Shown here in pieces: positions 1 through 27,911 of a DNA stretch of 64,000 nt. Within the stretch, counting starts at the first letter, position 1. Each line of letters opens with the position of its first letter. Position numbers and translations under genes: made by a program. The notes beneath the pieces were generated by a model. The model saw nothing but the letters and a program-made list of their open reading frames with translations, did no database searches and was not told the origin of the DNA. Source of the DNA: Chrysomallon squamiferum (lineage: Eukaryota > Animalia > Mollusca); assembly GCA_012295275.1 (NCBI GenBank), contig CM022671.1, positions 35,588,001 through 35,652,000 on the forward strand, read 5' to 3'.

Positions 1-133
1 TTCTAAATACAAATGGCTTCAGATATTTGTTAAAGACACATACTTGCATTCTTTCACATCATTCATTCATTCATTTATTCATTTATTCATTTACACTCTC
101 TAATGGCATAAATTTTTTTTTTTTTTTTTCCAG

Positions 134-1730
134 GCAACCAAGACATTTTCAGCTCGAATCTTCCAGACGTGGGTAAAAGATTGTCTCACACAGAATCCAT
201 TTGGAGTGTCGGCCTGCATTGCTACTGGTGTCAGACTGTCTTGGCCATTTGCAGGTAGAGAGAAATATCAGTTACTTGTAGTTCTGTACTGTCAGAGATA
301 CCAGTTTCTTATTCCTTTCTGTGTGAGAACGTCCAGGCTTGTTTTTTATCATTGTTTTGAAATGGTATATATGTTTAAATAGACAAATATACTGATATTT
401 AATCAGTGGAATAAGAAATACAAAGTCTGTTGCCAGTATCAAGCAGTAATTCAATTTATTACTAAGGAGCTGGTTGGTTAGACAGACTGAGAGATCCCAA
501 GATAAAACCATTTGAGAGATATTTTATATAAAATGAAAATAAATTGCTTATTTCATGTTTCTTTTTGTCATTTTTAGTACATTTATTATTTAAAAAAACT
601 ACATATATTTATTATTATATTTTTACAGTTAATTTTGATAATTTATTGACTGATAAAATTACTTCTTTAATAGTTAGATTGTAAAAAAACATTTAAATAA
701 ATTTGTAGGTGATGAGTCTAAGACTGAGATAAGCTCTACTAAACGAGGAAAAATAGCAACGAATGCAAACATTGTACCAAAAGCCAACATCAAAGGGTAA
801 GCAATATCATCATTATTATGTTATGATTATAATTTTGGTAACCAGGAGAAGAAAACATTCATCAGTTTACGTAGGATTTTTTATTTAATGCTCTGAATAA
901 CCTCACAGACATCTGTGAAAATTTAAATGTATATTGAATAAAAGATTTAGTGATACTGAATATTTTTCAGAGGAGTTTGATAGGAGTGCACTTTTAACAC
1001 TACTTGTTCTGAAGTTTGTAGTTTAGCTGTTTTATTTTTGAATTTTAAAAAAAAAGTTTATATTTCTATTTCAGTAACAAGATGATTATAATGAGTCAAG
1101 TTGGCAAGCAGACAGTAGCACGGGTGAGCATGTCAAATGTAAAGAAATAAATAATAAAAGAAGTACAGAAGTTAACATTAAATTACAAACTGCTTGTGTT
1201 TGTGTGTGTGTCTCAGTGTATGTATGTGAGTGTGTGTGTGTGTAATATTAATATATAAATTTAATTGTAATTTATACAGATACATCAAGAAAATAAGTAA
1301 TTTTAAGTTTGACATGTAATAAGAGTTAATATTGGATGAGATGTTATTAAACAAATAAACTATTGTTTGTTTGTTTGTTTGTTTGTTTGTTTATTTACTG
1401 GTTTGTTTATTTATTTCAGAGTTCTGGCACTCTAGAAATGAGTTGTGTAAAGATACACAGGTGTCACTACTCCTTTCTCTACCTGTTATCTCCTCTCAGG
1501 TAACTTCGTAATTTTATTATTTATTTTTAAAATATTCTATTTATTCTTATTTATTAATTAATTTTTTTTATTATTTTATTTTATTTTTTTTGTGAGAGCT
1601 CTTTTTTTTTTCTTTTTTTTTAGTTTTGTTTTAGTTTTATTATTTTTATTTATATATTTATTTTTTTTTTTTTTTTTCATTTCATTTCATTCATTTATTT
1701 ATTTATTTTTTTTTTTTAATTTTATTTCAT

Positions 1731-1765
<35 letters not shown>

Positions 1766-4575
1766 TTTTTTTTTTTTTTTTATTTCAGGTCTGTGACAAT
1801 AGATAAATGTAGGTATTCTACTGTTGTGTTGGGTCCTGTTGAGACGTGTGTACATCTGAGTAACTGTGAGAATGTGACACTGATCACCTGTTGTAGAAAC
1901 GTCATGGTCAGGTACATTGTTTTTCCCATTCAAACCAGTGTCTAAAACCTCTTGTCTCCAAAGCATGATAATTTCTTTATTCTGAAAATTGTTAATATCT
2001 AACATTTGTAGTAATAATTATAATATTACTGCTGCTTTTAATATTAATTACATTTTTACCAGTTTAATCAGTGTTATTGTCTTACTGGATCTTTCATGGT
2101 TGTTATTATTGCTTGAATATTTACTGTATATATTATTATCATTATTTTATTAATTATATATTTAATTTTTTTAATGAAAAACTCTGGACTCTTGTTTTGC
2201 TCTTTGAATGATATAATTTTTTATAACATTTTTGTTAATTGTTATTTTTAGTTTTTCTTTCTTTATTTATTTTTCAGTGGTTGTACATTGTGTACATTGC
2301 ATCTGTTGACTCCATCACGTCCGCTCCTACTGAGTGGTAATGACTCCCTGTTACTAGCCCCATACCACACCCACTACCCCCTGCTAGAAGAACACATGGC
2401 CAGGGTGGGGATCAGTGCAGCCCTCAACATGTGGGATCAGCCACTCTGTGTGGGTAGGTGATGTCTTTCGATTTCTTTACTCAAACTGTTTTATTTTATA
2501 TTTTATTTTATTTTATTTTATTTTATTTTATTTATAATTTATTTATTTTTTATTTTTTGTTTATTTTTTTAAAAATATTATTTCTTTCTTTTTTTTAGTT
2601 ATTATTGTTATTGTTTGTTTGTTTGTTTTGTATTTTTTTGTATTTATTATTTAATCTTGATATTTTATATTGTTTGTTTATTGTTTAGTATTCCAATTCA
2701 TTTGACATATTTTCCTAAATTTTTTCATTACACAATTTCTGAATTTTTTCATGTTAAATTTTTTCATTTCTTATATTCTTTTCTACTTTAATTTAGATAT
2801 AATTTGCGCTTTTTGATTTTTTATATTTAGATAAACAACCATATAATTACCTTTTATTTTTTCTTTCTTACTTTGTATGTATTTAAAAAAAAAAAAAATT
2901 AAAAAAAACGACAAAACTTTGTATGTTTATTGTTGTTTTTTCAGTGTAGATAAATTCCATTTTCGTCCAGAAATACAATTTTTAATGTGTTCTCTTTATT
3001 ATGAATAATTTCTATTTTTAATATTTTTTTATTAAAATAATCAGTGCATCCAGTAATTTTATTTTCATTTCATAAGTATTTAAAAAATATATGAATCTTT
3101 TCTTTGTGATAAAACTGAGATTTGAGAGGAAGCAAATGTTTGGTAAGAAGTCTCAGAAAATGTAGAAATGTTTCTGTATGGGAAGGTTAAGGTGTAAATC
3201 TAATGATGAGTTACAAGTAACACTTGAATTGTACACGCAGGTCCTGATCATCGAGATGAGACACCTGTGTGGGAGTTGCTTGCTGTTCAAGATTTCTTCA
3301 CTTTCGTCATTCCCTTTGAGATGTCAGGACCTACAAAAGTAGGCTCAGTTTGTTCTTATTTTTTTCTCTTTTTTATACGTATTTGTCCATGTCATCCATT
3401 AATTAATATAGTAAAGTCCCAAATGAAGATATATATAACAAGTAAAATAAAATCTTTTATAAAAACGATCAGAATGTTGTAGCCGTTGTTTTTAGTTCTT
3501 ATCTTTAATTTTTATATGAAGGATTTTTCAATTAATTTTTTTTTCTTTTTTTTCTGGTATATGTTTATGGGTTTGATATCTATTTTTTATTTATTTTTTA
3601 AATAACATTTTAAAAATAAATTATTTTAAATTTGAATTTCTCTGATTAGTGTAACAAAAATAGTTTATAACTTGTATTTCAGACAAATTTTCCAAGTTAT
3701 ATCTATTTTCAGTGTTAATGGTTTGTTCTAATAAAATACAGTGTTATAAATCTGAACTGAGATATCTGCTAGTTAAATTCGTGAGATGTGTGTTGTGTTT
3801 CTCACAGACTATACCTGGTGGCCTGCCCAGTCGGTACCAGCGAGCAGTGACACAGAGACAGAAGACAATAGATCGGTGGCAGAGAATGGTGAAAGACGCA
3901 GGTCTGAGTCATGATCAGAGGAATGAATTTCAGAGTCTTGTTGAGATGAGATTTCACGTAAGTCACTATTTCAGTGTCAAATTAAAAATTATTGGGGTTA
4001 ATAATAAAATGTATATCCACATATTAAAAACCTCTTACAGATGCAGAAAGACAAATGTCAGGTTAGCAAGTAAAATTGTTTAAAATATTTTTTATCATTT
4101 TTAATCGGACATCAACATGACTCAAGTGTAATTCCTCCTAGATGTTCTTTGTACTTCTTCCTCTTCTCAGTTTGCACCTAGTTGCTCCTTTAAGTTGTAT
4201 TTACAGATTTGTGTGTTTAACACCTAGTAACAGTTAATATTATTTTATTTACATATCTGTACATTTAACACCTAGTAACAGTTAATATTATTTTATTTAC
4301 ATATCTGTACATTTAACACCTAGTAACAGTTAATATTATTTTATTTACAGATCTGTACATTTAACACCTAGTAACAATCAATTTTATTTTATTTACAGAT
4401 CTGTACATTTAACACCTAGTAACAATCAATTTTATTTTATTTACAGATCTGTACATTTAACACCTAGTAACAGTTAATTTTATTTTATTTACAGATCTGG
4501 TTGTCAGAAAGTGGACACAAACGGGAAGTCGACACTCTCGTTATTCCTCTTCAGTCTTCCAGTGCCAGGCAGTGA
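134..4575 (+). CDS. TBCCD1: TBCC domain-containing protein 1, 3' part (5' exons lie upstream of the window)
   Basis: GT-AG exons with consistent phases: 134-254, 709-796, 1075-1123, 1420-1499, 1789-1911, 2278-2453, 3241-3338, 3808-3957, 4495-4575 (TGA). Translation includes WVKDCLTQNPFGVSACI, KIHRCHYSFLYLLSPLRSVTIDKC, LTPSRPLLLSGN, APYHTHYPLLEEHMAR, FVIPFEMSG, IPGGLPSRYQRA. These match vertebrate TBCCD1 motifs as I recall them. Confidence 0.93.
4199..4499 (+). repeat. 48-bp tandem repeat (about 6 copies) containing the 3' splice site of the last TBCCD1 exon
   Basis: Unit TTAACACCTAGTAACAGTTAATATTATTTTATTTACA(G/T)ATCTGTACAT. CACCTAG recurs at 4221, 4269, 4317 and onward at 48-nt spacing. The last copy runs into the exon at 4495. 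Confidence 0.95.
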
Positions 4576-6580
4576 CAAGATTTGTAAATTGTTGCCTTAA
4601 AATGTTCCCAGACACACCAACTGACTGAATCAGTGGAAATACTATACTTTTATCTTGAAAATGGTCAACAAAAATATTTATTAGTTGTTAAATTTGTTAC
4701 TGAAACTTTGGAAAGCATTTAATATCCTGTGTTCTGAATCCTGTTTAGCTCGTGTTTTAATATTTTATTTTCCGATTATTTTACGAATTAAAACATTCCT
4801 GTTAGATAAAAGAGGTGTAAATAAAATGCTATTGCTAGTCCGTCCATTTATTTTATTTATTTGTTGACAAATTTTGTAATAAAAAAAGATTTATTAACTT
4901 TTCTATATCTTAGTTTTTGTTTATCTTTAATATATCTTACACTTTATTTATTTATTTTTTATTATTTATCTTTTCATAACTACTGGTATGTTTTGACTTG
5001 TGATAAAGCTCTTAGATGAGGACTTCATTCAAAATAATTATGTGTAGTTAAACCATATTCATGGCAGTAAATACATCTAGCACAAATATATTTTCTTGTA
5101 TAGATGTTAGTGGTTACTTATTTAGCACCCAACCTCTGCTAATAATAAAGCATTACAGTAACACAATATCAGTAAATCACCTTTTCTTTTTCTTTTGTAG
5201 TTTTAGCTTTAAAAGTTATAAACAAATTAAATTTTTCTAAGAACAAAAGCTCATTAAATTTAGTAGAAATGAACAGATTAAGCCATATATAACCATAAAA
5301 ATTAAATTTAATTGTTCAACAAAGTTTAATTCATGCTTGGTTTAAAGATACAAAACTTAGTAAAGTTATCTTTTTACATTTTATTCACAGCTTGTTTTGT
5401 TGATAACCTGATTAAGAAAGATTTTAAAGATGAAACAAATACTGACAGGTAATAAAGGTTGTGGAAATTTTTTCAAACAAAACAAAAGTGTTTCCAAAAA
5501 TCTTTATTAGAAATTTAATAAGAATATATATTCTGTACAGCTAAACAAGATAAAATAAAACAACAAAGATTACTGTGGATTAGCTTTCTGTTCAGTTACC
5601 TCTCCCTCAAACATGATACATTTAAATGCACACAATTAATTCAACATTTCAAACACTTAGCAACAACCTTGGAATATTTTCTGCTGACTTCAACCCATGT
5701 AGTAAAAATAGTGTTCGTCATTTGTTAAATTTTGCTGTTTCAGTATTCTAACTGATACAGCCACTTCAGATCTCAGACTGGTGATCCAAGTACATAATAC
5801 AATTTGTTGCAGTGGTCAGATTTCGTTTTGAATTTTACTTCATACAAAAAATCAGTCAGTGTAAATTTTGGTTGATGATGCATAATATTCAACTGTAATT
5901 TTTAAAAACTGAAATGATTATAGGTAACAGGGAAAAAATCTTTACATTACAAACATTCTTTTATTTTGAATAAATCGGTGGTTTTCTTTAATTTTGAGAA
6001 AATATTATGTTTGTATATGATAAACTGTATTTACTCCATTCAGTTTTGATTTCAGTGGTTTAGAAACTGTTCTAAGAATATATATATAAATTTTAACATA
6101 TAAATAAAACAAAAATATTAGCCAAACAACTTAAAATATGCACTGTAAAAATGTAAATAGAAATTAAATGCAAAAGGTAGATAATTATATCATGAATACT
6201 GAATATAAACTTATATATGGATAGTACCCTTAAAATTCATGAAAAAGTATTGCAACAAAATATCTTATTTTATCAATAAGCAAATACAATGTGGTGAATT
6301 TAAATTTGCCTTATTTTGACATCAACAATAAAATACAGCAAAATCATCTACTGACAGTACTGGGTACAATAATTTCTGTTCTCCTGATTCACTGATACAA
6401 TTCTGTCAGCTGATCAAGTCCAAAGTTTAAGATTTTAATCCTATGATTTATCTTTCTAATTATCTCATTTTATGCGTAGTGTGACTACATTAAAAAAATA
6501 AAAACAAAAGAAAACAGAAAATAAAACCAACAAAGAAAACACTTCATTTGTCAATGACACTAAACTGAGTAATCTAAAAT

Positions 6581-6614
<34 letters not shown>

Positions 6615-6851
6615 CTTCTAACAATAAGCATCTTCAAATATATTATTTTTTGCACCTTGTACCATGATCTACAGAGTGAAACAAAAACAAACAAAAAACA
6701 TAGAGTAAAACTACATCTAGCTAACAACAAACAGGCTATTTCTCTTTGCCTTTGTGATAAAGTATCCAGATTATTAATAAATCTTTTAAACAAACACAAT
6801 CTTGTCTTTCTCTTCAATAAAAATTTTGTGCTGTGAGTATCAAGCTGCAGA

Positions 6852-8893
6852 CTATAATCTGCTCACCCATGATTTTGGATCATCTCTGGAATGTAAGAAA
6901 TTCAAAATTTATATTAGTGTATTTCTGAAAAAGAAAAAACTTAAAGAAATGCAAAAATATTAATTAGGAAGAAATTAAACAAGATATACATGAATAATGT
7001 GTTACAGTATTTAATGTTAAATTAAAAAATTAACTGCTGTAACTATTTCTTTTCTTAAACATTTATTATCAACTTACTTGATTTCTGATTTCTTAATAAC
7101 TTGTTCCTTATTCATCAGCTCTGCAGCCTGGGATACCAGAGGATCCATTCCCATCGTTGCCACAGCAACAACATTATCTCCCCTGTTAGAAAATAATAAA
7201 TTAAATGTTGTTGTTTCTTTGACTTTCTTCTTTTAACAGCATTAATACAGTTATAAATTTGTTTTACAGTGATAATCACCCCTCCCCACCAAAATGATTT
7301 TTAAATTTGAAAGAAAAAAAATAAACACTGCTGACAAAATGAATAAATAACCCCCAAAATTAATAATATCATAATTAATCATTTATTTTCATAATCACTA
7401 AAATGAAAGAAAAGTATACATTTACAGTCTGTAACTTTTTCAGATCTTTATATTTGCATTTAATTTTTAGATTGTTTATATAAGATGTTTTACTTAACAT
7501 TAAATGAGAAACAGATAAAACATATTACAAATTATCTTTATATGTTATAAAATAATTTAATAGTTTGTTTTTAGACATTTTTTTAAAATTATTTTTCTTC
7601 ATCTAGTCCTATTTTTCAATGTATGACAATAAAAATAATGATGTGTAAATGACAAACTTTGTGTAAAAAGCAGCAAACTTGAAAGCATCCAGATCTCCAT
7701 GAATAACAACATCGTCAAAACCTGCACCATACCCTGAAATAAATAAAAATATAAAATATATAAAAGAAATGTATATATATAAATAAATAAATACATGTAA
7801 ATGAACAAATTAAAAAGTAAATAAACTAACTAATGAATTAAAAAAACAGACAATAGTTCTAATAATAATAATAATGTTAAATAATCATATTTAATAATTA
7901 ATAAATAAATAAATATATAATGTTTAATAATAACAACAATAATAATAATATTTCGTCTAAAACAATTTAACACATTACCTGCATAACGTATACTTTTTCC
8001 ATACTGCTGAGTCCAGAAATAAGGCACACTGTGCAGTTCACACTTTTTACCTGCCATGTTGAATGCTGCAACACGACCTGTAAAATAAAACTCAGTCAGT
8101 GAACATTATGAAAAATACTAGATACCTAAGTGTAGTAAATTAATCAAAAGACAAAAACTTTAGATTTATTTAACTTAACAACGAGTAGCAAGAAATAATG
8201 TGATTTTGATGTAAAATTATTTTGTGTAACAATAACACTTTTATAATAAACAGTTTAAAAAAAATATAGATAGATGGATAGATAGATAGCTAGAAATCAG
8301 AAAGATAGATAATGATATAAACAGTTTAAAAAAAATATAGATAGATGGATAGATAGATAGATAGAAATCAGAAAGATAGATAATGATAGAAATAAATAGA
8401 TCAAATAAAATAAATAAATAAATTAAATATACATTCAAATAAATAAATAAACAAACAGAAATCAATAATTAAAATAAAACAAATAAATAAATAAAAATAA
8501 ATAAAACAAACAAAAAAATAAATAATAAACAAATAAAAGAATAAATAAAAAAGCAAGTAAACACCATAAAACAAATAAACAAATATATAAATAACAGTAT
8601 TATTCAATCATCCATTCTGAAAAGTCTCTCACCATGTTGATGTGCCATCTGCCAGTGTTGTACGTTTGAAGCTGAGTTTCCAGTGATAAAGAGAGGAAAC
8701 TCTACAATGTCACCAGCAGCAAACACACCCGACACATTTGTTTTCAAACTCTGAAACCAGAAAATTTAAATTACAATTAATACTTACAGCAACATTCTGT
8801 CAGTTTCTTAAAGGCAGTTTTAAATAATATTTTTTTTTTTTAATTTTTTTTTTATTTATATTTTCAAAAATTATTTTATTATTATTATTATTA

Positions 8894-8979
<86 letters not shown>

Positions 8980-9276
8980 ATTTTTTGGATGATAATGAAA
9001 ATTATGTTTTACCTTGTCTACAGTAACAAATCCTCGAGAAGTCAAATTTATTCCTGAGTCTTTGAGAAAATCTGTTGATGGGACAACTCCTACAAACAAA
9101 TTATAAAATTTAAAATATCTGTTAATGTAACTTACTACAACATAGACAGAAAATAATTTATAAAGATAAATAAGCATACAAATAAATTTAATATTGTTAC
9201 TAGTAATGGTATCAATAGTTATAACATTATTTTATATTTTCTTTTAATTATTATTATTATATGATTATTATTGTTT

Positions 9277-9319
<43 letters not shown>

Positions 9320-9603
9320 TGTTGCTTTTTTGCAGTTCTGTTTTGCAAATTGTTTTTTAAACTGAAAGAGTATCCATTGATTACTGATCTTTGCCAACTA
9401 AAAATGTAAAAAATAAAAATGTACAAAAACAAAGATATAAAACTTACCTGTTCCAAGAATACAGATATCTGCAGGAAGTTTTGTTCCATCGTTCAGAATC
9501 ACTTCTTTCACTTTGCCATTCTCACCAACAAACTCCTTGATACTGTTTTCAAAATAAAACTTGACACCTTTCTCTTCATGCATCTTTAAAAATAAATAAA
9601 TAA

Positions 9604-9702
<99 letters not shown>

Positions 9703-12700
9703 AATTTCTATAAATTGTAATTTAAATTATAAAACAAATTTACTTATTTTGTTTTTATCTTTATTAATTGATTAATTATTATTAGATAATCTTTAAACTT
9801 TAGATATATATATATATATATATAAATATAATTATTTTTAACATTTTAAGTGGATAAAATCTTGTTTAAAATATTTTACAGAAACATTTACATTAAAAGA
9901 GAGAAGAAAGAAAAATCCCTGCAAAACAAACTATATGGTCTTTTGTTTTTTGACTTCATAATTTTTATTATTTTTTTTTTTATTATTTGAACAAGAACAG
10001 TGCATACAAATTATAAATTTTAAAACCAACACCAAACACCACAACATTTTCTGAGACAAAAATTAACTGTATTAGAATAATGAAAAAATACAGTGAACCC
10101 TTCAGACTCAGTGAACCAAGACAAGGTGGTCATTCCCACTGGACACTGTTGGAACATCAACATTAAAGTATAATAATACTGACCAATCGGACTTCAGAGT
10201 TCAATGACTCAAGAATAATAGTTAATATATAATACAATTTAATCATAAAAGAGTAACATTTTTCACAATAGTAAAAGATAAATTAAACTAAAGTATTTTT
10301 ATTTTTTTCCCAGCTTCTGACATTAGTTTTCAGTGTTTGTTATGTCTCTGCATCAGGTTTAGACTAATGTAGACTATTTTCTCTGTATTTTTACACAGTT
10401 TTTGTTTTATCATTAAGGCCAGTGTTACTTTTGCACACTGTCATTCTGTTAACAGATGGGTTCTCTGTATTTAAAAAAATTCTAATGCTCAATCATAAAG
10501 CCATTTCCAAGCATGAGTAAAACAAATATCTTTGACTATGCACAAAAGAAAATAAAGAAAAATATTTTAAATTATATTTCATCCTAAGTAGCTTACACTA
10601 CTGGAATAGGAATGTGGGTTTAATAAAAAATAAAAAAAAATAAAAAACAAACCCAGAATTACAAAAGTAAATGTAAAATAATTAATACAATTAGTAAAAT
10701 GAAATTTTAGTATCCAAGAAAAATGCAACCATTAATTTCATTAAAAAAAAGAAAGAAAATAATAATAAATAAAAAAATATACACACAAATAATTTGTAAA
10801 AATAAAACAATGTGTTAAATATTAAGATAATAATAATAATTCTTTATTCTTGTAAACAAAAAGTACTTAAACAAATTAACAAAATAATGCATATATCACT
10901 TTTTTAATAACAGAAAATATATGCTTAAAACCAAAAATATCCATACTGAAATACAAAAACTACTTATTTCTCAAATTATTAAAACTACAGAAATATCACC
11001 TACTTATAAACTAAAAATATGTACAAAACTATACTTTTACTACATTCTAATAAACAAAAAATATGTACAAAACTATACAAATACTACTTTCTAATAAACA
11101 AAACATATGTACAACACAATACATATACTACTTTCTTATAAATTAAAAATATTTACAAAACTACAGAAACAATACTTTCTTATAAATTTAAAATATGTAT
11201 AGAACTATACAAATACTACTTTCTTATAAACTAAAAAAAATGTATAAAACTTCAGAAATGCTTCTTTCTTATAAACTAAAAACATGTATAAAACTACAGA
11301 AATACTACCTTCTTATAAACTGCTCCAATTTGTTTACCAAGAACAAGTTGCAGTGGAACAGAACTTCGGCCAATCACTGTGATGCTGTTTGCTTTTGCAT
11401 TTGTCATGAATGCAGCCACCTCAAGTCCTGTTTTTGAACATTTCATACTTGTACACCAGTGTTTTAATATACGTTATATAAACTACAATTCTTATCTAAG
11501 TCTAACAAAAAAAAAAGAAGTAGAAATAAAAATAATAATAAAAAAAATAAAGAAAGAAAAAAAAAGCATGAAAAAGAATGGATGTTTCTTCATAAAATAA
11601 CATGTTTTATTGTAGCCCACAGAGGGCATTTTGTCACTGACAGTTCTGTCAAAACCTTTTTCTTCTATTATAATAAGGGAATTTTGTACAGCAGAACTGT
11701 AACAAAAATATCACATAAAATTGACAAAAAGTCTTCTGACTTTGCAGTCAATTTTTTAATTTTTTTTTTTTTTTTTTTTTTTTATATCATCATCATCATC
11801 ATCATTATTTTACATTATCTTTCTGACAATTATTTGATTTTTCAACACCCAGTTCCTCCATTCCAGTAGTGGCTCCAAATGTTATCTCAATTCAAAGATA
11901 TTCTTTTCACCTTTTTTTTTATTTCTCTTTGGACATATTATAATATAATCTTACTTTATTATCTTCATAAATTGGTTTTCAACAAAATAATTATTCAGAA
12001 GTCTAGAAAATAATTAAGTAATTTACTGATATTATTTCAAAACTATTAAAATTATTTTTCTTTATTTCTCTGTTTTGAAAAATTTATGTAGATGATATAA
12101 GTATTTCTAAACTTTAGTAAAATGAAAATAATTTTAATGAGTTGTACGCTAATGAAATTTATTATTAATGGTGATGAGTTTTAAAATAATCATAAACAAC
12201 AGGTCTCTCACTGTGGACACTAATTAGATGCAGTACAGATGTGTTAATATAGAAGCAGGGGTAGTATGTTGTTACTGGTTTCAAACCTGGAACAGCTACA
12301 ACAATGTCAAAAGCAAATGTTCTCATTCTAATTCATTTTACATTTCTCAGTGATCTAAAATATCACTTGAATAATTATTTATTTATTTATTGTGATCTTG
12401 TAACTAAATTATTTATATTTATTTTGACTTTGTGTGAAACTGAAAATTTAAATTTACTGAATTAGACTGAGAATGAAATAAGGTAATCTTAACCCTTAGA
12501 GTTATATGTACAATATCAACATTCAAACAAAACATGTTAGTAAAGTTAATATCAAGACAAGAAATATCAAACAAACATTGCAGGCTGTGAACAGCAAATA
12601 TCAGACAACAAAATAATAATTATAGCTTCAAAGTCAGAGTCAAGGTAATGAAAAAAAAAAGAAAATGATGAAATCACCTTGCGCAGAGCAGAGCCTACTT

Positions 12701-14219
12701 TGTCTCCCAAGACAAGTTGGAATGGGATTTTGATAAGGTCAATGACCGATACACTAAGAGCTTTGCCAGCCAAAAATGAAGCCACTTCCATTCCTGAGAA
12801 AAACATTTTTTTTAAATGAATGAATAATGAATAACAATGGAATAAATGAATAAATAAATAATGAAAGGAAAAATAAATAATCACTGGATGAATGAATTAA
12901 TGAATAAAAGAATGAGTAATGAGTAAATGAGTGACTAAATATCTCAACAAAATTTTAATATAGCAGGTTTTTATTAATAGAGATGATATGAGAGATGAAG
13001 TCTACAACCACTATCCCACAGGATGAAAGGTATGTTTCTGTCACACGTTTGTGAAATTAAAACTTTGAATCAGAATAGTAGCATCCTCTGATAACCAAAG
13101 AGCTTTCTTAATATTGATTAATAACCTTCTACTAAACTACAGTTCAACACACCAAATAGCAAGCAAAATAACTAAATAGTTAAGGATGACAGAATGAACA
13201 TTTATAGGATACAAAACTAAGCTAATATAAAAGGAAAATACTGTAGGATAATAAAAGAACTAAGAGATACAAATTAATATACAAAGAAAGTAAAAGTAAT
13301 ATTAGAGATAATTGAATCTGTATTTAAGAGAATGTGAAAGCAATTCTGTATTTTATGAAGACATTGTGATTCAAATTAACAAAATCTAGATGGAGTGCTA
13401 GCTCAACACAAGAGGTAAATTAAGCTCATTGTAAATATCTTGGGCTAAAATTGTGAACAAACACAAATAAAACAAAATCAGAAAGCGAAATTACTACAGT
13501 AAGCCGAATTCCTTTGAATCAGCTACAACTATGGTGTAACAAACCAAATATTTTGTTTGCTACAAAATTAACAAAAATCTGATATTACGTATTTTAACTG
13601 ATAAAATGAATGCAGAAGGATGTTAACACTTGTTTGATCTCAACGGTGAATTGATACCTGTATTAAATCTGATTTGAAATGTAAACATACCTATGAATGA
13701 TGAGCCAAGAATGACGACATTTTTGCCTGCAGCCTCATTTCCAATCTTGTTGGCATCAGAGGGTGTCCTCAATTGACACACATTCTCTAGATCTATTCCA
13801 GGAATTGGTAGAATTCTTGGTCTGTAAGTAACAAAGAAGACTTAGAAACTTTTTCTTTTCACTTTGAAAAATGAAAAGATTAATATCTGCTTTGTCATAT
13901 CTTTATATATTTTCATATCTAACATAATCAAGTATTTTTATCTCTTTTTCTACTACATTCTTTTGCTGTATATTTGATTGTAATGTGCCCCTTTTTCCAA
14001 TATGCATGACTGAATGAATGAATGAATGAATGTTTAATGACACCCACATTACCAATATGCAGTCAAACAGCAGAATATCAGGTTGAAAGATGAATCACAT
14101 ACATATGGACTCTGAACAGAGTATATGTAGCTGAATTTACATTAAATATTTCACTTTTGTTTAATACTCAAGATCCTAACTTTTCTATATTTTTTCTTCT
14201 CCTATGCATGCTGTTTGTT

Positions 14220-14262
<43 letters not shown>

Positions 14263-17200
14263 CTCAGTGAATGAAGTACTTTCTCTGTTTCTAGTGTAAA
14301 CAACTTGTTTATGAGTTATTAAGAGATTATAGTTTCATCAATAAAACACTCACTTGCCCCCTGTAGCTATCAGAAGAGAATCATACTTTAGTGAGCTTCC
14401 ATCTTTGAAAGTAACAGATTTGTTTTTAGTATCCACAGACACCACCTGAAACCAAACAGAAAACATTTTAATTTGATAAATATTAAAATACACAGCTACA
14501 GTACACACGTAATTTAGTGTGCAGAGTAAACACAGATGTAAAATTATACAAGAAATTAATCAAACAATGTTAATATAAAAATATGATGGTTTCAAAATTA
14601 CTCCCAAAGCACCTTCCTGTTGTACACACTTATGTATAAACACAGAAATAACATGCATTATTACACACATACACACAAACTTTTCATTAATGAAATTATC
14701 TTTTATATCTGAACTCACCTCTTTTTCTGTCATAATTTCAATATCACCAGATTTGTAAAATTCTGCATTTTTCAAAGCAATGTCTTCAGGTTTAGTTGTC
14801 ATGGCCTATAGAAATGATAATTTATAAACAAATTTATAATTCCTATTTCATGTAATCAGTTACTAAACAAATATTTAATAACACCCAAATATTTTTTATT
14901 TTAAAAGTAACAATTAGGCTTATATTTTCAAGATATCATTAAGATAGTAGATTTACAATGCTTGATGATATATATTAAGAAATATATATATGTATGTTAA
15001 TTAAATACCTCTTTTGGTGTTTTCTATCTGTTTCTTTGTTTATTTTTGTTAAAGTTTTTCATATTTTAAATTTTTTTCATATTTTAAATATTGATTTGTT
15101 GTCAGACTAATCTGAACAACCCACACATTTACCTTGCTCAGTTTTGTTCTGTCATATGGCAGCCATTTTTCCTGTGTTACCACAACAACCTTTCCAGTAA
15201 ATCCTTCCTGTCTAAGTGTTTGTGCACATGTAACAGCAGCAGCTCCTGTGACAAATAATAATAAATATAATAACAGTAATAAATATGACAATAATTAATT
15301 ACAATAATAATAATAATCTCATAAAATAAAATAAATATAAATATAAAAAATAAATAAATAATGAAATAAAAATAAAAATAAAATAAAAAATAAATAAAAA
15401 ATAATTAAATAACTAATAAAACTGCTTTAAATTATACTCAAAAAATAAGTAAACAAACTGTCCAAACAGTTATTAAAAGAACATTTTCTGAACATTTTAC
15501 TGACAAAGTAAAACTTTAATCAGAATGGTATATGAAATATTCAAACTATCTGAGATGATTTTAAAACTAAAGATGAATTAACTTGGCTATTATAATCTTT
15601 TATTATATTATTCTAAAATAAATTACAATTTAACTTTAATTAACTAAAATAATAATTTTAAAAATGATATATATATTCAACAGTAAGAAAAACAAAGATG
15701 GTAGAATGTTTTTTACCTCCTCCAATGAGAACAAATGTTTGTTTGTTGTTTGGTGAAGATTTTACCATTGGTTTCTCCAGTTTGTTTCCTGTAATGTTTG
15801 GATTGTCAGTGACAACTACCTTTCCATTCTTGATGCAAACCTGAAAAATATAAATTCAAAAATCAGAATAATGTTATCTGGAGACTTTCAGACATGTCTG
15901 TTACTGTAAATACATAGAAAAAATAAAATAAATAAAATAAATAAAATAAATAAATAAAAGATGATGATGATGATGATGATAGTGACAGTAATAGTAATAA
16001 TATAGAACTGGAAAATGAAGAAAGAAACTTTTGGGTATATAAGCAAAATGTTTGGATACTTTATTTAGATGATACTTTAAGTAGTATAATGTATTAAAAA
16101 TAACTTACCATGATTTTCAAACATAACCTGCAGACTCAAACAATAATTTAACAGCCCTAAAAGGAATTTCCAGCTCATCATAACAGTTTTCACTTTTTAT
16201 ATTTTGGATTAGATGTTTTTAAAAAAATGCAATCAAAATTGAACTTTGACCCACCTCAAACTTGGGGATGCTGTCCAGACCAGGGTAATCCTCAATGTCT
16301 CCTGTTTTCACATTAAAACAAGCTCCATGCCACGGGCACCGCACACGCCCGGAACACAACACACCTGATTAAAAAAAATGTCATATAAACTTTGGTTTTA
16401 ATGACACGATTCTTTAAAATTAATTTGTTCTTCTCTTTCTCTCAGTTAACCTTCTTTCACTCTTGTTTACTCTTTCTGTCCATCTCTTAAACTGAACTTT
16501 TTTCACCTCCGTACTGTTTTTCCCATTCTCACTTATTTTTTCTTTCTCTCAGAAATAGTTCTTTTAGCTGCAGTTTATTTTTTTTAAAATAAAATTATGT
16601 AATTTTCAGTGATTATAAATATATTTAAAAAAAAAAATTTAAAAATATATTTCTTGATATTTTTATTTTTAAATATGTTTATTTAAATTTGAAGAGTAAT
16701 TTATTTAATTTCCAAATTTTTATTTATTTATTTATTTTATGGAAAAAATAAAAGGAAAAAAAAAGTTTACCATTAGCTAGCGAAGCTCCATAGTGAGAAC
16801 ATTTTGGACCAACTGCATAATATTTTCCTTCTTCACGAACCAGCAGAACTTTTCTGTTTCCTACTTCTACCTCTTTCATCCTGTTGATAAAATAAAACAA
16901 AATAAAAATAAAATATATATATATATATATACAGATAGTATTACCAAATCAGTAAATAAAAAATCATACTTAAGGTTAATGATAATGAAAACAATTTCTA
17001 AATTTTAACAAAATAAAAAAAAAAAAAAAAATAATAAAATAAAATAAAATAATATAAAATAAAAACTGGAGAAAAAACCCCATTCCAAAATGATTTAATG
17101 AAAGAACTGGTAAAACAAATGAAAAAAGTAAATATTTAAAAAAAAAAATAATAATAATAATAAATAAATAATGTATTTTAAAAAAAAAATTAAAAATTCT

Positions 17201-17634
17201 TGTTTAAACTAGTGTAATAATTTAATATAGACTGATTCTCACTCTCCATCTTTGAGATCATTTTCTGAACACACTGTGTACTCGTTGGCTGACATGTTTT
17301 CTGTTGTTTGTGTTTCACTTTCTGGTGACTCTTCCCTCGGATACAGACTCACAATTTTAACTGATCGAGCTGAAACAAACAACAAAAAACAACTTTTGTT
17401 TACATCTGCATGTATGTACCTATGTGTTTATATCTCTGACAAAATGTTTTGTGGGAACTCATTTGCAGTGACTGTGAGAAAACAAAAACTTGTTTGAGGC
17501 TGTCAGTGTGTATCTTTGTGTTTGTATAAGCATGTTGTGTGTACAAACAGAGAAAAGGAATGATGAAGTATAAGACTGACATTGTTAAATATCAGTATAT
17601 TCATAAATTTTGTTTGTTAAGTACTACAGACAAA

Positions 17635-17679
<45 letters not shown>

Positions 17680-20480
17680 TAAATAATAGAAGCTTCACAC
17701 TGATAAACCTTTTTTCTTTAATACTGAAATTTTACTTTTACTGTACACCACATCTAGCACACTTTCAGAGAAATAAGTATGATTATTGGTCAGCTGTATT
17801 TGTTTAGCAGGTGAATACAAATAAGTACACTGATATAAACCTGTGATGATAATGCACGCTTCAAGGAAATTAAGATAATGGTGTACTGTTATTGATAACT
17901 GTGTTCTTTACAAAGCTAAAAGTAGTTATAATTAGTTTGTTTCAGTGTTAAATTTATGTATTTTTGTTTTGTCAGTAGAGTTGTTAGCAAAGCTAAATAA
18001 AACATATATTTATCTGTTACCTGTCTTAAGAACCCAGAGAAAATTAAGAGCTAATATACCATTCTGATGGATGTGACAATAGTGAATTTAACAAATGTGA
18101 ATAAAGGTAAGTATATAGGCGCTTATCACTTGTGACAATAATACATTTAACATGTGTGAACAAGGCTAAATATACTGGTTTATTGCCTACTGCAATATAT
18201 TTGGTCAGGTAAGTATGCTTATCAAATAATATATTTAACACATTTAAAAGAAAAAAGTTTACAAGTCTATTATTACCAGTGTGAATAAAATATTTAGCAC
18301 TTTTGATAAAAAGAATTAAGTTTATTATTATTTGTATTACGTATGACATGAGTATATTTAACATCTGTGAATAAATGTAATTTTACAGATTTTTATTTGT
18401 GATAGTTGTAAAAAAAATTAAATTGCTGAAGGCAAATATATTGTAGTTTATTACATGTCACAAAAGTATATTTATGAGAGCTGAATAAAGGTAAGTATAC
18501 TGCTTATTACCTGTGACACCTGAGTAAAATACGCTGGTTTGTCACCTTCGACTTAAGTATTTAGCACGTCTGAGAAAACTGTGTGTATTAGCGTGTTTGC
18601 CTTCAGGTATATGGTAATAAATATAACGTAATAAATTACATAACATGACATCAATATCTACTTAGTGTTTCCTTGAAATCAATCAATATTTAATCAAACT
18701 GAATGTATTAGTTCATTTCTAGCTCTCTGTGTCTGCGTGCGTGCGTGCGTGCGTGCGTGCTTGTGAGGATGAACATTTTTTTTAGTAACAATAAAATTTA
18801 AACTGTGTGCATTGTTGCTTTTATTGTTAGTGTTAAATATTCTTGTAATTATTTATTTGTTTATCTATTAACTGTTGTTATAACAACTGTACAGACAACA
18901 GTCATCAGTCAGGTGGAACATGAACTTCAATACGTAACGGAATTAAAAACTGGTCGTTCTGCTTTGATTACCTCCATTAATGGATGTACCCTTGTTTTAT
19001 TATCTTTATGACCACGCCATATCTTTCAGGGAACAAGAACTATAATCAAATAATCGTCAGATATGTAGTTCCATCTACATTAAATTCAGTTACCGTCTTT
19101 TCTCGTATTTCGGAGCTCCTAATCATGTTTACATTCGTATCGCCACATACTGTAGCATATACTAAAACCTATAATGCCTGGGCATGTTCATGTATACGGC
19201 CGTAACTACATTGAAGCAAACGAGGTAAATGTCTCATACCCAAATTGACGTCTTTTTAAAATATATATAGAAACGATATTCACTGAATTAGTTTGTTTAT
19301 GTCTACTGTTACCGTTTGAAGTCTACCGGCATGGCGTGCAATGAATGACGTAACTGACTTCAAAGACATCAATTTTTGCCTGATTTGAAAAATAGTAATC
19401 CTTCTATTACAAAATTTGCAAAATATACCTTGAAGTAATCAATAATTGCGCACCGTGTTTTGTAAAGCTAGTAAACATGCGCAAATCATATACGTCATAT
19501 TTTCAATAAACTGAGAAGGAACTTGTATGCATCTCGTTGTTTAAAAGTGTGACTAAAATCATAAACAGGTTAGTAAACGGTGAAATATATATATAAATTA
19601 TTTCTGTTGTTATAAAATTCATAAAACAGTTTTCATTAATATCAAATAATAGTAATGACTTCTAAAGCGGAAATTACCGAACGCGTACATAACTAATCGA
19701 TATAATTATCATTATGTTGCACATCACACGGTACTGATCCAAAATGTGTTTGCAAATCAGATTTGTAGTGAAGATTAATCACAAATTGTAGACTGGTCAA
19801 AGCACAGAGAAAAACTTTGCTAACAAGAGACAGACCTAAACTCCAAGAGTATATCATAGTAATACTAAATAAGTAAAATAACAATAACACCAATAATAAT
19901 ATAAAGAATATAACAAGGGTAGAAACTGCAATATTAACAATATTATTTTAGAACCATTTTCAAATTTCCGGTTCTTTAATCGGTTAAATACGGTAATCTG
20001 ATAACCTAATCATGATTCATCAAAAATCTTCAGACGTCAAAATGCAAACAAGAAGAAGTTCAGCACCAAATAAATAATATCAGAGTAACTGACAAATAAC
20101 TCACACTGAAACTGCGTTCAAACAAGTCCGAATAACCGTGGCCTAAGACAAATAATTTTCGACAAACTTTTTATAGCTCATACATTCGATGTTTACAAAT
20201 TACAGTGGCCGCCTTGTTATGAGCTCCGATGGTCACGTGACCTTGGAAAACTAGCAGTCCCGTTTAAACACGATTTACAAACACAAGCCTTAGCAGTCGT
20301 GACACAAGTTGAATTTCCTTATTTTCTTAAACTTATTACAGTTAAAATAATGTATATAACAGAAATAATTACAACTGATAATGAAAATAATAGGCCTAGT
20401 GCAGAAATATAAGTGCTTCCTAAATTTATGAACTAAACTGATGGTACAAATAAAAATATAAAATTAAAATAAAGTGAATT

Positions 20481-20518
<38 letters not shown>

Positions 20519-20648
20519 GAAAAACAAAATTAATTTTTTATAGCAGTTAACATACAAGTAAGTCGTGAATTAAGAAATAACTCGCTTATCGACGTAAACA
20601 TCCAAACGGGACTTTTCATTAATTAAAAAAAAATAATAATAATAATAA

Positions 20649-20684
<36 letters not shown>

Positions 20685-21161
20685 TCAGTGTTGAATTTGT
20701 GTACAGTTAATTAATTAACTGTTGAAGTCTGAAATGTATACGAAAAAAAAAGAAACCACAAAGAAGCTGTCATAGCAGGTGCAATTAATGTGACGTTCAC
20801 AAATGTCGCCGAATCACCAGAAAAGATGTAACTGGACAACAGATAGATATGCAAATAAAAATATAATGTTAAATACAAGAACATGCAGCATTTTATAACA
20901 AATAAAACGAATTACTTAACAAATTATTTTACCTTTAATAATCTTTTAAAGCGAACAGCCTAAAATCAATAATTACTTCGTATATATAAATTATTTACTT
21001 CTGAAAATTAAAATCCAAAAGTACTAAATATTAATCTCAGTCGTAACCATGATGATGACAGCAACAACAACAGTAACGAAGAGGACGTCGAAATTGATGA
21101 TTAAATCAGAAATAAATGTACCTGATTTCGAAGGACTGAATTTAGACTGCCGTTTTCCCAT
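6852..21161 (-). CDS. AIFM3: Apoptosis-inducing factor 3-like: Rieske [2Fe-2S] domain plus pyridine nucleotide-disulfide oxidoreductase
   Basis: Exons 21161-21122, 17369-17243, 16880-16771, 16364-16255, 15840-15717, 15245-15133, 14805-14719, 14445-14354, 13821-13691, [12793-12678 OR 11427-11309], 9583-9448, 9089-9013, 8750-8633, 8077-7979, 7733-7658, 7182-7078, 6885-6852 (TAG). Motifs: Rieske CSHYGA...CPWHG; FAD-binding VLIGGGAAA; PYDRTKLSK; LIATG; NAD(P)-binding VVILGSSFIG; FAAGD; QHWQMAHQHG; VPYFWTQQYGKSIRYAG. Confidence 0.94.
9607..9700. repeat. (AG)n microsatellite, representative of many (AG)n, (AC)n, (AAT)n, (AAC)n, (AGT)n and (ATGT)n tracts (e.g. 29455-29510, 30776-30850, 33339-33408, 34774-34889, 49028-49125, 56304-56384)
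   Basis: Directly visible simple repeats in introns and intergenic DNA. Confidence 0.98.
10980..11320 (-). repeat. Degenerate tandem repeat of about 43-45 bp (about 8 copies) starting at the donor of AIFM3 exon B
   Basis: Minus-strand consensus approximately GTTTATAAGAA(G/A)GTAGTATTT(C/G)T(G/A)TAGTTTT(A/G)TACATATTTTTA. The first copy includes the last 12 exon nt and the GT donor. Confidence 0.85.
11309..11427 (-). CDS. AIFM3: AIFM3 mutually exclusive exon B (GLEVAAFMTNAKANSITVIGRSSVPLQLVLGKQIGAVYKK)
   Basis: Acceptor aaacag|GA, donor AAG|gtagta; 119 nt, same phases as exon A, no stop codon, clearly homologous to exon A. Absent from the ORF track. Confidence 0.85.
12678..12793 (-). CDS. AIFM3: AIFM3 mutually exclusive exon A (GMEVASFLAGKALSVSVIDLIKIPFQLVLGDKVGSALRK)
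   Basis: Acceptor tttttctcag|GA, donor AAG|gtgatt; 116 nt, phase 1 to phase 0; continues the GSSFIG motif. Confidence 0.92.
18080..18580. repeat. Highly degenerate repeat region with units of about 55-60 bp in an AIFM3 5' intron
   Basis: Recurring blocks TGAATAAAGGTAAGTATA (about 18098 and 18483), GCTTAT(C/T)AC(T/C)TGTGACA and ATATTTAACA. Confidence 0.5.
19313..19500 (-). promoter_or_regulatory. Proximal AIFM3 promoter and short first exon (about 19355-19313) with a uORF
   Basis: Inr-like TCAGTT at 19357-19352 (minus strand), donor CG|gtaaca at 19313/19312, CRE-like TGACGTAA at about 19346, NRF1-like CATGCGCA at about 19477. ATG at 19332 spliced to 17369 gives MPVDFKRSIS*. The main start would then be ATG at 17295. 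Confidence 0.55.
20105..20242 (-). promoter_or_regulatory. Candidate TATA-containing alternative AIFM3 promoter and first exon
   Basis: TATAAAAA at 20175-20168 (minus strand), donor AGT|gtgagt at 20105/20104, perfect palindrome GGTCACGTGACC (E-box/CLEAR type) at 20231-20242. Confidence 0.45.
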
Positions 21162-24437: not shown

Positions 24438-25529
24438 TCACTGTTGTGAGCACAGCGTCAACGGCAGACACAGCAGAGGAGAGGACGTCTTAGGATTTCC
24501 CACGTACACTTGAAGTTCTTTTTTCAACACGTCTATAATAGCAGTACAGAATGTCGCAGCCTTTCTGTAAATTGGGTATTCTTTTATTTCTGTATCTCCT
24601 AGAATATTCCTGACATCAGCTAGACACTTGGGCGGCGGAAGTGACATGATTCTCTGTGAGCGGAAGTCAGAACTGTATTTCGGCAGAAGTTCGTCTGCTT
24701 CGCGGTGTCTGAATTTATTCACGTGAAAATAGCTCGACTCCTCGATTCTGATCACGTGACAGCTCGCTTCCACGCCACTGGGACAAACTTCAATGACTGA
24801 AGGGTGCTCAGTATCCGACAAGGACCACACCAACACCGCCATACCGACTGCACATCCGAAATCTTTATTCGTCAAAAGTGTAACAACGTCATCAAGACTT
24901 CTTGCTGACATCATCGCTCGCAACACGACCTGACTTGGTGTCTTCGTTACCGTTTGTCTAACTCTGACGTTATCCATGGCGGTTACGAGGCCGTGGTGAT
25001 TAAAAGATATCGTGTTTCCGGGTAGTTTTCCCGGATAACACAATCCTGTGAAGTATTCCTTTTCCTCCCCTCCGTCGTTTAGGACGTGAACATCTACCAT
25101 GTAACCGTACTGACAAACCGTAGAGTTAGCGTCCTCGTTGTGACCTATGATCTTCACGTCAGGTCTGTTTACAACGACTGTCGTGCAGCCCATACCGTCG
25201 TCACGAAGAGTTCTAGCATGACCGTTGACAACGTCTCTCTCCATGTTAAGTAAAAACACGCGCTCAAAGGGTAACCCGGCACCCAGAGCCGTTCCTTTAA
25301 TCTCGTCAACATACTGTGGGAAATTCTTCAGTGTTTCAGCGAGTGTCTGATCAAAAACAGCACGACCTTCTGGAGAATCGTAAAACGGGACGAGCACTCG
25401 TTGAACGTCTTCGCATTCGTTGACGTACAGCTTTATCTGTTTGGTGTACGTGTCACCCGCACTGTACCCTACGTCGTAATGACTTCCTCTGGCGTATAAC
25501 ATTGGTAGTGATGTGCCTGATTTGGCCAT
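24438..25529 (-). CDS. Peptidase C45 family Ntn hydrolase (Tan-like beta-alanyl-amine hydrolase / acyl-CoA:6-APA acyltransferase-like), 363 aa, uninterrupted CDS
   Basis: N-terminal GSHYDVGY, FPQYVDEIKG.A.GAG...F..N, autocleavage site G|CTT (Cys115, codon 25187-25185), IIGHNEDA, YPGKLPG...FNHHGL, YFHVN, SSDFR, LGD....YPIYR, TFCTAIID. A likely 5'UTR intron has its donor AAG|gtaaga at about 25709/25708. Confidence 0.9.
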   Translation of the reverse strand: MAKSGTSLPMLYARGSHYDVGYSAGDTYTKQIKLYVNECEDVQRVLVPFYDSPEGRAVFDQTLAETLKNFPQYVDEIKGTALGAGLPFERVFLLNMERDVVNGHARTLRDDGMGCTTVVVNRPDVKIIGHNEDANSTVCQYGYMVDVHVLNDGGEEKEYFTGLCYPGKLPGNTISFNHHGLVTAMDNVRVRQTVTKTPSQVVLRAMMSARSLDDVVTLLTNKDFGCAVGMAVLVWSLSDTEHPSVIEVCPSGVEASCHVIRIEESSYFHVNKFRHREADELLPKYSSDFRSQRIMSLPPPKCLADVRNILGDTEIKEYPIYRKAATFCTAIIDVLKKELQVYVGNPKTSSPLLCLPLTLCSQQ

Positions 25530-26631
25530 ACTGTTAACCTATTTTTATGTAATAAGAAAAAAAAAAAAAGAAAAAAAAAAATTTCAGTAAATGTTTATAT
25601 TTTCCGTATAGCCATATAAATTATAATGAAATAGTTTTTAAGATAGGTCATCAGTAAATGAATAGTATATTATAAGCTATAAATGTGAAATCTGTTTAGA
25701 AATCTTACCTTAAAATGATTTCGTTAACAGATATTCTAAATTAACCTGTTTAATTCTGAAATGGTTTCTCGAAGTTCATTTAATGGATAATTAGTTTATG
25801 GTTTTAGTAGTAGTAGTAGTAGTGATAGTAGTGTTAGTACTGCCAGTGGTGGTAGTAGTAGTAGTACTAGTGATAGTAGTGTTAGTACGTCTAGTGGTGG
25901 TAACTGTAGTAAACCTGCACAGATTCAACAAATCTCTATGTGTTAGATATTTTACAGGTGTGTGTGTGTGTGTGTTTGTGTTCATGTTTATGTGTTTTAA
26001 GGAGATAATGTTAATGCTGAAGAATTGTTACCCTTCCGTTCAAGTTAGCAAGAAATGTTGTGAATGGCAAATTGTTTCGCTCTATAAAGTGGTCACGTGA
26101 TATAACAGAATTTCAGATCTTTCGTTTTTTTTTCTTCCAATTTGTGGTATCTAATAACCGCTGATATTAAAATATTAAATGGACGTCGACTTTCAGTTTT
26201 GTTGATTACATATTTTGGCGTAATATGGTAAATAAAACATTCCTTTCGATTCTGAGATTAAATCGTGCTGTCTTATCTTTGTACTGTGGTCGACATTAGT
26301 TCAGTGAGAACAACCAACTGGCACTGGCAAAATACACACCAGTCTCTGGACGTACAGATCTACAGATAAACCAACAGAGTAAGCTGTACTCAAGTAAACC
26401 AGTTAAGTTGTAACGTTATTGGGTTTTTTTTTGTTTTTTGTTTTTTAATAGCATTTAACTGACAGTATATCTTTTGTTGTAACGAGTATTCAGGAAGAAG
26501 GAAAAGGGGAAAAAAAAAACAAAAAAAAAAACATGGACATTTTAAAATTTAAGTTTGAATATTACTGTGATGCATTTATTTATTTATAGATTTATTTATT
26601 TATTTATTTATTTATTATTACATTTTAGCCA

Positions 26632-26861: not shown

Positions 26862-27911
26862 CTCACACACATTTGCGGATATATGTAAAACGTAACTGGT
26901 TTGTTTTTACCGCTAGCGTGGCCGCCGCACGACACTGCTAAGGCAACCACCGCGGCCTGACAGAAGAAGACGTCATCCTTCTCGTCATGAACGACATTGA
27001 CAGAGATGACAATCAACAGATCACAAGCAACGAGTTTACGTACGAATTCATCACAAAATATGACCATGATCGTGAGTGACTCAGAATAAATGAATGTCAA
27101 CACATTTTTACTAATGACGGTTATTAAGAGGCAATTTGCGTTCTTGAGGATTTTTTCCTATTTTTAAAAAATATATATTATTTATTTATTTATTTAATTT
27201 TTTTTTTAAATTTAATTTAATTTAATTCTTTTCTATTCTGTTTATATATATTGATGATGATAATAATTATAGAAAGGGCAACCAACTGCAGCAATTCCTG
27301 TGGTTTTTTCTAGATAAAGATATTTTATGTTTATTACTGCGGATATGATACAGCACTGACACCAAGACTGTAGAAAACATACGTAGGGCAATGGGTGGAT
27401 CGGGAAACTGTCCACTGAGGAGAACAGATCCTGTTCTAACCATGGTATTTTTTTCTTCTTTTTTTTTCTAAGAAGGACGGAAATGTGACTTGGTGGTTAG
27501 AACTGCTGGCACAGAGCAGAAAATACGCAGTGGGCTGTTTCCCGTTGTACCCATTTCCCACAAAATGACATCAGCTTTTTCATGGGAAAAGTGTATAAAA
27601 CAAGATACCTTACTACAAATAAGTGGATTTATTACTATTTTTATTTTATTTTATTTTATTATATTTTTAAAGGTAGTTGTATATAAACTGTGTGTGTTTG
27701 TTTATTGTTGTTGTTGTTTTAAATTTATTTATTTGGTTTTTTTTTTTTTTTTTTTTCACATCCTAACATTTCTGAGTCGTAAATAACGAAAACTGCTGAG
27801 GTGTCACATATAATTTCATTGATTAATTCCAAAGCTAGGAAATATGTCACTAAAAAAACTACATTATTATTTCATTCTCAGCAACTACAAGTGTCACATG
27901 AATATTAAAGT

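Follow-up and report, generated by a model that had tools for sequence, protein, structure and literature searches.

Introduction

AIFM3 has the fold of BphA4, putidaredoxin reductase, TodA and plant MDHAR (Foldseek E down to 5e-40, rmsd about 2 Å), and unlike these enzymes it carries a Rieske ferredoxin fused in front; an AlphaFold2 model of one of the forms described below, from Haliotis, also matched ArR and PuR in the structure search. AIFM3 is poorly understood and its acceptor is not known. NADH and NADPH are drawn on for different purposes, and as a rule an enzyme is tied to one of the two pools by its gene. The engineered BphA4 mutant E175C/T176R/Q177G is reportedly NADPH-specific.

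In wild-type S. mutans Nox (Asp-Val-Val), a flavoprotein of the glutathione reductase family, the values are 580 for NADH and 0.09 for NADPH (cell-free extracts); D192A alone gives 140 and 15 (about 9-fold NADH-preferring), and D192A/V193R gives 130 and 960 (about 7-fold NADPH-preferring) (PMC3995211). In AIFM1, where the ratio of NADH to NADPH is 75, the change E336K brings it down to 0.0225 (PMC13217802); the reverse switch in E. coli glutathione reductase took V197E/R198M and five more changes (PMC5817062). Nox D192A/V193R, the glutathione reductase mutant, BphA4 E175C/T176R/Q177G and AIFM1 E336K were changed at loop positions, and in a direction, equivalent to those that set the two exons of the present study apart. 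These switches are laboratory or disease mutations, whereas in AIFM3 both states are natural and are encoded by one gene through splicing.

Tandem duplicated exons of which each transcript carries one, with a functional site altered, are known from PKM1/PKM2, ketohexokinase A/C and FGFR IIIb/IIIc; to our knowledge, none of these changes the pyridine-nucleotide pool. Among the 20 of 205 matches listed in our literature search, none described a splice-switched pyridine-nucleotide pool by its title or the start of its abstract, and none of the papers listed for AIFM3 dealt with its kinetics or cofactor use.

Here, a window of 64,000 nucleotides of the Chrysomallon squamiferum genome was analysed (GCA_012295275.1, contig CM022671.1, positions 35,588,001 to 35,652,000, forward strand; positions below are counted from the first nucleotide of this window). 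An earlier note, made from these letters alone, had proposed that two mutually exclusive exons of an AIFM3 gene exchange the determinant of NADH/NADPH specificity, and its author knew of no description for AIFM3. No account of the mollusc exon pair was found by us either, in a search by titles and abstract beginnings that covered mostly journals outside subscription; genome-wide exon catalogues in supplements could list the event.

The AIFM3 gene and its exon pair

The gene runs on the minus strand from 21161 to 6852. It was modelled by tblastn with two proteins, the best match and one from Haliotis; exon borders were then adjusted to GT/AG sites and to joints in RNA. Its 5' coding exons (14354..21161; 21161-21122, 17369-17243, 16880-16771, 16364-16255, 15840-15717, 15245-15133, 14805-14719 and 14445-14354, all minus strand) encode the Rieske domain and the first half of the FAD domain; the exon furthest 5', 21161-21122, gave a weak match only (E=0.014). 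The 3' coding exons (6852..9089, minus strand) lie at 9089-9013, 8750-8633, 8077-7979, 7733-7658, 7182-7078 and from 6885 to the stop at 6854. Exons 16880-16255 match the Rieske part of a relative (protein P0001) at 78-90%, and in this relative Pfam detects Rieske (E=1.9e-21) and Pyr_redox_2 (E=1.1e-64); the Rieske ligands C45, H47, C64 and H67 are invariant across 104 sequences. The closest named protein is that of the gastropod Gigantopelta aegis (78-81% identical). By sequence, the N-terminal Rieske domain, the Pyr_redox_2 domain and the resemblance to named AIFM3 proteins over the full length assign the gene to AIFM3.

Two alternative exons, here called A and B, stand between two constant ones, all on the minus strand. 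The upstream constant exon (13691..13821) encodes strand βA and ends on the motif GSSFI-G, its final Gly codon being split by the intron; the downstream one (9448..9583) measures 136 nt. Exon A (12678..12793; 116 nt, phase 1 to 0) has the loop D-L-I and would give an NADH-only form, and exon B (11309..11427; 119 nt, phase 1 to 0) has the loop G-R-S and would give an NADPH-accepting form. They are set apart by introns of 897 nt (12794..13690, constant exon to A), 1250 nt (11428..12677, A to B) and 1725 nt (9584..11308, B to constant exon), each GT-AG. The coordinates, lengths, translations, borders and phases in the earlier note agree with this model throughout.

The exons are homologous and in tandem, match in phase, are nearly equal in length and share 46% of their protein residues. 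In the gene model, exon A alone gives an AIFM3 of 564 aa and exon B alone one of 565 aa, both with the stop at 6854; model A is identical to Haliotis A at 364/527 positions and model B to Gigantopelta at 378/465. Inclusion of both exons leads to a stop at 11406 (357 aa) and skipping of both to one at 9578 (313 aa), so that the frame shift earlier predicted for these two products is borne out. To judge from its 40-aa translation, which as a query finds gastropod AIFM3 (E=1.8e-10, 80% identity), exon B is not a chance reading frame; the Gigantopelta AIFM3-like protein, the sole protein among 10 candidates found by that query, also has exon B's one-residue insertion.

Conservation in molluscs

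Annotated pairs of both forms were found in 13 mollusc species, gastropods and bivalves, known from proteins and mostly from automated annotation, which upholds the expectation that both exons are conserved in other molluscs. Isoforms of equal length occur in Haliotis asinina, H. rubra, H. rufescens, H. cracherodii, Pomacea, Littorina, Aplysia and Mya; the further species are Mytilus californianus, M. coruscus, Patella, Mizuhopecten and Crassostrea gigas. The RefSeq/GenBank pairs of AIFM3-like proteins show alternatives of 39 residues that match those of the window, with matching borders (Haliotis asinina, XP_067650692/XP_067650693; Aplysia, XP_035825044/XP_035825045; Mya, XP_052800271/XP_052800272); their names, X1 and X2, are automated, and the isoforms apparently have stood in the databases unremarked.

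Fifteen pairs, chosen as equal in length and opposite in type, were compared (12 mollusc species, with Littorina twice, and two loci of the hemichordate Ptychodera; C. gigas was omitted for unequal length). In all 15, there were 17-26 differences inside the 39 residues and none outside. The two members of each pair were taken to come from a single locus because their flanks are identical and their contigs equally long; in Littorina and Patella they also carry a common locus tag. In Gigantopelta, Lottia and the chiton Liolophura a single form was seen, and the cluster of each has no other member; no cephalopod was among the 120 matches listed.

Across 12 mollusc species, exon A of the window is 62-79% identical to A exons and 38-51% to B exons. 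Exon B of the window is closer to gastropod B than to gastropod A; in mussels and scallop there is no such sorting. With the loop left out, gastropod A and B still pair with bivalve A and B, respectively (four-point score 29.0, 18 of 20 comparisons, site sign-flip p=0.008). Since this pairing across the classes does not depend on the loop, a single duplication before gastropods and bivalves separated, over 500 million years ago, is its simplest reading. We hold it nearly certain that A and B, the exons for the cofactor loop in mollusc AIFM3, are a real, old and mutually exclusive pair.

The loop and its expected effect on cofactor use

Helix A, strand βB and, after them, the adenosine-ribose loop are encoded by the alternative exon. 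In the AlphaFold2 model of Haliotis A (alignment of 104 sequences, pLDDT 96.5) it comprises a helix (273-282), a strand (288-293) and a second helix (300-316), and the strand ends at Asp D293, 16 residues past a conserved Glu. The model supports the earlier assignment to helix A and strand βB, down to the Asp on which the strand stops. In BphA4, Glu175 binds both ribose hydroxyls and the spacing from Glu159 to Glu175 also equals 16 (PMC7397466). The Asp of exon A aligns with a Glu of TodA and an Asp of putidaredoxin reductase, and the x-R-G of B exons with the I-R-G of yeast glutathione reductase; exon A keeps the acid at the end of βB that is found in NADH-dependent ferredoxin reductases, enzymes which have one fixed loop each. 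In MDHAR, Glu196 corresponds to Glu178+18, by this count two places beyond the Asp of AIFM3 form A (PMC5031999). Glu336 of AIFM1 likely stands at +2 as well, for it precedes Lys342 by six residues just as MDHAR Glu196 precedes Arg202. With acids at +0 in BphA4 and at +2 in MDHAR and likely AIFM1, three loop positions are informative, namely +0 (the strand end), +1 and +2.

For a census of these positions, 114 rows of the mollusc clade were used; 11 unparsed rows were dropped (fragments, one mis-annotated start, and short Logan rows reading as type A) and the remainder gave 60 distinct exon sequences. Asp at +0 was found in 35 of the 60, none of which has a basic residue at +1. In the other 25, neither +0 nor +2 holds an acid; Arg occupies +1 in 16 of them (gastropods with G-R-S, bivalves with V/A/C-R-G) and is absent from 9, three of these being Elysia-type rows known without a partner exon. 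In three B exons of clams the loop is C-R-G, as in the engineered BphA4 E175C/T176R/Q177G named in structure titles. The acid is the only all-or-none difference between A and B (35/35 vs 0/25), and Arg occurs only where the acid is absent.

From these loops, form A is predicted to be strictly NADH-dependent, Arg-bearing B moderately NADPH-preferring and Arg-less B relaxed. In form A, the Asp would hydrogen-bond the adenosine ribose hydroxyls and repel a 2'-phosphate, leaving an NADH-only enzyme; form B would accept NADPH and, where Arg is present, prefer it. In both, electrons would pass from FAD to the Rieske cluster and on to the acceptor. The splice choice thus likely sets the reducing pool on which AIFM3 draws, and we consider it probable that it shifts the use of NADH and NADPH substantially.

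The clean swap between NADH and NADPH in the earlier note stands in its direction and is overstated in its extent: Arg is present in only 16/25 B exons, loss of the acid alone left Nox NADH-preferring, and exon B of the window, which has no acid and Arg at +1, has Gln at +7 and hence no equivalent of R204. E. coli glutathione reductase carries R204 and A179, and an Ala-ending glycine-rich motif, GxGxxA, is typical of NADP enzymes (PMC5817062). Exon B of the window shows neither a second basic residue at about +7 nor GxGxxA; in A as in B, Gly closes the glycine-rich motif, a point against an NADPH-type B. In rice MDHAR E196A, the phosphate of NADP was placed away from the former Glu position (PMC5031999), which also speaks against the prediction. 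Acid at +2 was also found in 90 of 146 aligned 50%-cluster representatives of the family (4 of 150 were gapped, and the rows are almost without names), so that absence of acid at the strand end does not by itself mean NADPH. Form B is more likely NADPH-accepting than NADPH-only, and the claim of one gene for an NADH-type and an NADPH-type reductase holds for the mutually exclusive homologous exons and has to be softened for B.

The most serious alternative, which we consider possible and clearly less probable than a shift in cofactor use, is that the exons are real and exclusive and both forms use mainly NADH; the swap would then tune affinity, turnover, charge-transfer stability or the partner surface, with B merely less strict. 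It draws on the Arg-less exons and on Nox, where the preference for NADH was retained on loss of the acid; it is also favoured by the many differing positions, which include the helix after the loop, and by the fast evolution of B, whose mean identity within molluscs (48.9%, vs 70.5% for A) is lower than that of the flanks (72.5% and 61.2%). About half of the exon differs, and other properties may be the target of selection. Against this alternative, the one difference that admits no exception is the acid, with Arg confined to exons without it, and exon B of the window combines both changes, the combination that reversed the preference of Nox.

Transcripts and exon choice

RNA of this animal was represented by four runs of one study, whose assembled contigs were placed on positions 1-18000 of the window. 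Constant junctions of AIFM3 are spliced: the upstream junction of exon 13691..13821 was found in 4/4 runs, junction 7181>7657 in 3/4, and five junctions within the 5' part (14354..21161) in RNA contigs. No junction of A or B was among the best 15 of 40 joints listed from the four runs, a silence that does not count as evidence against the use of either exon. The length of one X4 RNA contig fits inclusion of one alternative exon rather than both or none if the rows of depth 9.08 are one record, with A and B indistinguishable. Two Logan contigs with mussel-like sequence, 3257 and 3167 nt long, each carry a complete protein of 903 aa, of type A (P0185) and type B (P0206), respectively; whole proteins from contigs of about 3.2 kb require spliced RNA, which gives both types transcript-level support in mussels. 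All 10 parsed Logan proteins of oyster were type A, a hint from sequence that A could be the major form there.

The 1250-nt intron between A and B is far too long for steric hindrance to be the mechanism of exclusion, and incompatibility of U2 and U12 sites is ruled out by three GT-AG introns with ordinary donors. Among the best 25 of 164 inverted pairs, a search for docking-site hairpins of competing RNA pairing returned only A/T-rich low-complexity sequence. A transcript whose stop lies well upstream of later introns is, by the usual rule, a substrate of decay. The stops at 11406 and 9578 are far 5' of later introns, so transcripts with both exons or with neither would be such substrates, and nonsense-mediated decay may remove them.

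The acceptor of exon B is purine-rich, with 6 pyrimidines in 17 positions vs 8-13 in the acceptors of neighbouring exons, and a tandem repeat (10981..11321, no strand assigned; unit 44 nt, 7.7 copies) begins within its final 13 nt and adds six donor-like GT sites. These two features, a poor acceptor and repeats around the donor, would fit regulated and probably minor use of B, and the choice between the exons would be made by regulated use of this acceptor. The same features, the repeat having grown from the donor of B itself, could mark exon B as rarely used or as a decaying copy in this animal, with protein made from A only, and the missing B junction would agree. This we consider very unlikely, as the junction of A is likewise unseen among the same joints, and exon B is in frame, keeps AG and GT, and is 80% identical to the B of Gigantopelta, where NCBI annotates this form. 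That the two copies are an artefact of assembly or annotation, with haplotypes or paralogues merged, is scarcely credible, because A and B are only 46% identical to each other and other species have a matching counterpart for each of them, and because the flanks of the paired isoforms are identical in 15/15 pairs.

Occurrence beyond molluscs and origin

Among 20 named invertebrate representatives outside molluscs, all 20 are without acid at +0 and +2 and 13 have Arg at +1. The B-like loop is therefore the common invertebrate state and A an addition, which reverses the earlier framing of B as the divergent copy: B represents the widespread state and A is the newcomer. The "strong divergence" once ascribed to B holds for its rate within molluscs and fails for its loop motif, which is the common invertebrate one. 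On this evidence, a B-like exon would be the older state, and a duplication before the gastropod-bivalve split would have added an NADH-only option.

The hemichordate Ptychodera flava has an alternative pair of its own at this place (G-R-G in 6/11 and G-L-E in 5/11 cluster members, at two near-identical loci). For a common origin of this pair and that of molluscs, a comparison without the loop (columns 18-22 dropped) gave a four-point score of 0.0 (4/10 species positive, p=0.50); in a tree of the exon only (36 columns, 35/53 branches open) both Ptychodera exons fell on one branch (support 84). The acid stands at +0 in molluscs vs +2 in the hemichordate, which makes us lean towards separate origins. 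A second exon was not seen in Lingula (2/2 members), Lineus (2/2 full-length), Tachypleus (4/4) or Branchiostoma (15 listed of 25), in each of which annotation gaps could hide one.

Vertebrate AIFM3 has G-I-E in sharks and teleosts and E-L-E in tetrapods and human; the aifm4/AIFM3-like clade has G-S-S, G-R-S and G-K-S, with E-R-E in one row. In a tree without the exon these are sister clades (FastTree support 1.0 each). Without the loop, the vertebrate paralogues compared with mollusc A/B gave p=0.09-0.52 in four pairs. In the tree without the exon, four Asp-type proteins fall with those of the annelids Ridgeia and Paralvinella (support 0.94); for such proteins the test gave p=0.028 and 0.12, uncorrected, one of two.

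It is conceivable, and in our view rather unlikely, that an ancestral bilaterian AIFM3 already spliced an acidic against an Arg-type exon, that molluscs and hemichordates kept both, that most lineages lost one, and that vertebrates fixed the two states in paralogues, human AIFM3 being the NADH-only half. Without such an ancestral switch, the same device would have arisen independently three or four times, which would be hardly less remarkable.

Implications

For enzyme engineers, these exons are a natural set of loops, three of which equal the mutant BphA4 sequence seen in structure titles. The two forms, isogenic by nature and distinct only in the exon's loop region, make the cofactor question of AIFM3 directly testable. 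The prediction for vertebrates is that human AIFM3 is of the NADH type and that the fish and amphibian paralogue accepts NADPH. If the reading of A and B as a shift in cofactor use is true, molluscs would possess a cheap regulatory switch between NADH and NADPH, without precedent in the literature searched and kept since the gastropod-bivalve split.

Sequence context of AIFM3

A 44-nt tandem repeat (10981-11321) starts inside exon B of AIFM3 (11427-11309) and has duplicated the donor region of this exon six further times. Tail to tail with AIFM3 lies a spliced plus-strand gene (about 150-4870), for which six GT-AG joints were seen in RNA contigs; its frames are hydrophobic and Cys-rich. On the minus strand, an intronless frame of 366 codons (24441-25538) matches Pfam AAT (peptidase C45; E=1.9e-23); the genes around it are intron-rich, and the frame is possibly a retrocopy.

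Three mutually similar EF-hand-like gene copies are arranged in tandem on the plus strand (about 26900-34000), with weak Pfam EF-hand matches, under the cut-off, in two of the four pieces tested. Further along the same strand, a Ser/Thr-rich frame of 651 codons (58683-60635) is overlapped by a second long frame (58888-59301) and followed downstream by an Ig-like piece (62217-62552; match under the cut-off).

Variation among AIFM3 homologues

Loops are given as the residues at +0, +1 and +2 from the end of strand βB. The B exons of clam homologues P0010, P0189 and P0192 encode C-R-G, the identical three residues found in the engineered E175C/T176R/Q177G structures of BphA4, an NADH-dependent ferredoxin reductase. 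AIFM3 of mussels, oysters and pearl oyster (P0178, P0184, P0198, P0188) carries an N-terminal extension of ~300 residues, giving 818-922 aa versus about 530-600 aa otherwise.

The hemichordate Ptychodera flava has an alternative pair of its own, covering the same 39 residues as the mollusc exons (proteins P0439/P0219 and P0437/P0438), with G-L-E in one form and G-R-G in the other; the pair is present at two loci, between which 9 residues differ. In vertebrates, acidic and non-acidic loops are mostly divided between AIFM3 and its aifm4/AIFM3-like paralogues (P0276, P0227, P0244 versus P0011, P0014, P0260). Four proteins that cluster with annelid homologues (P0211, P0214, P0222 and P0238) have Asp-type loops; possibly the A exon originated before the molluscs.
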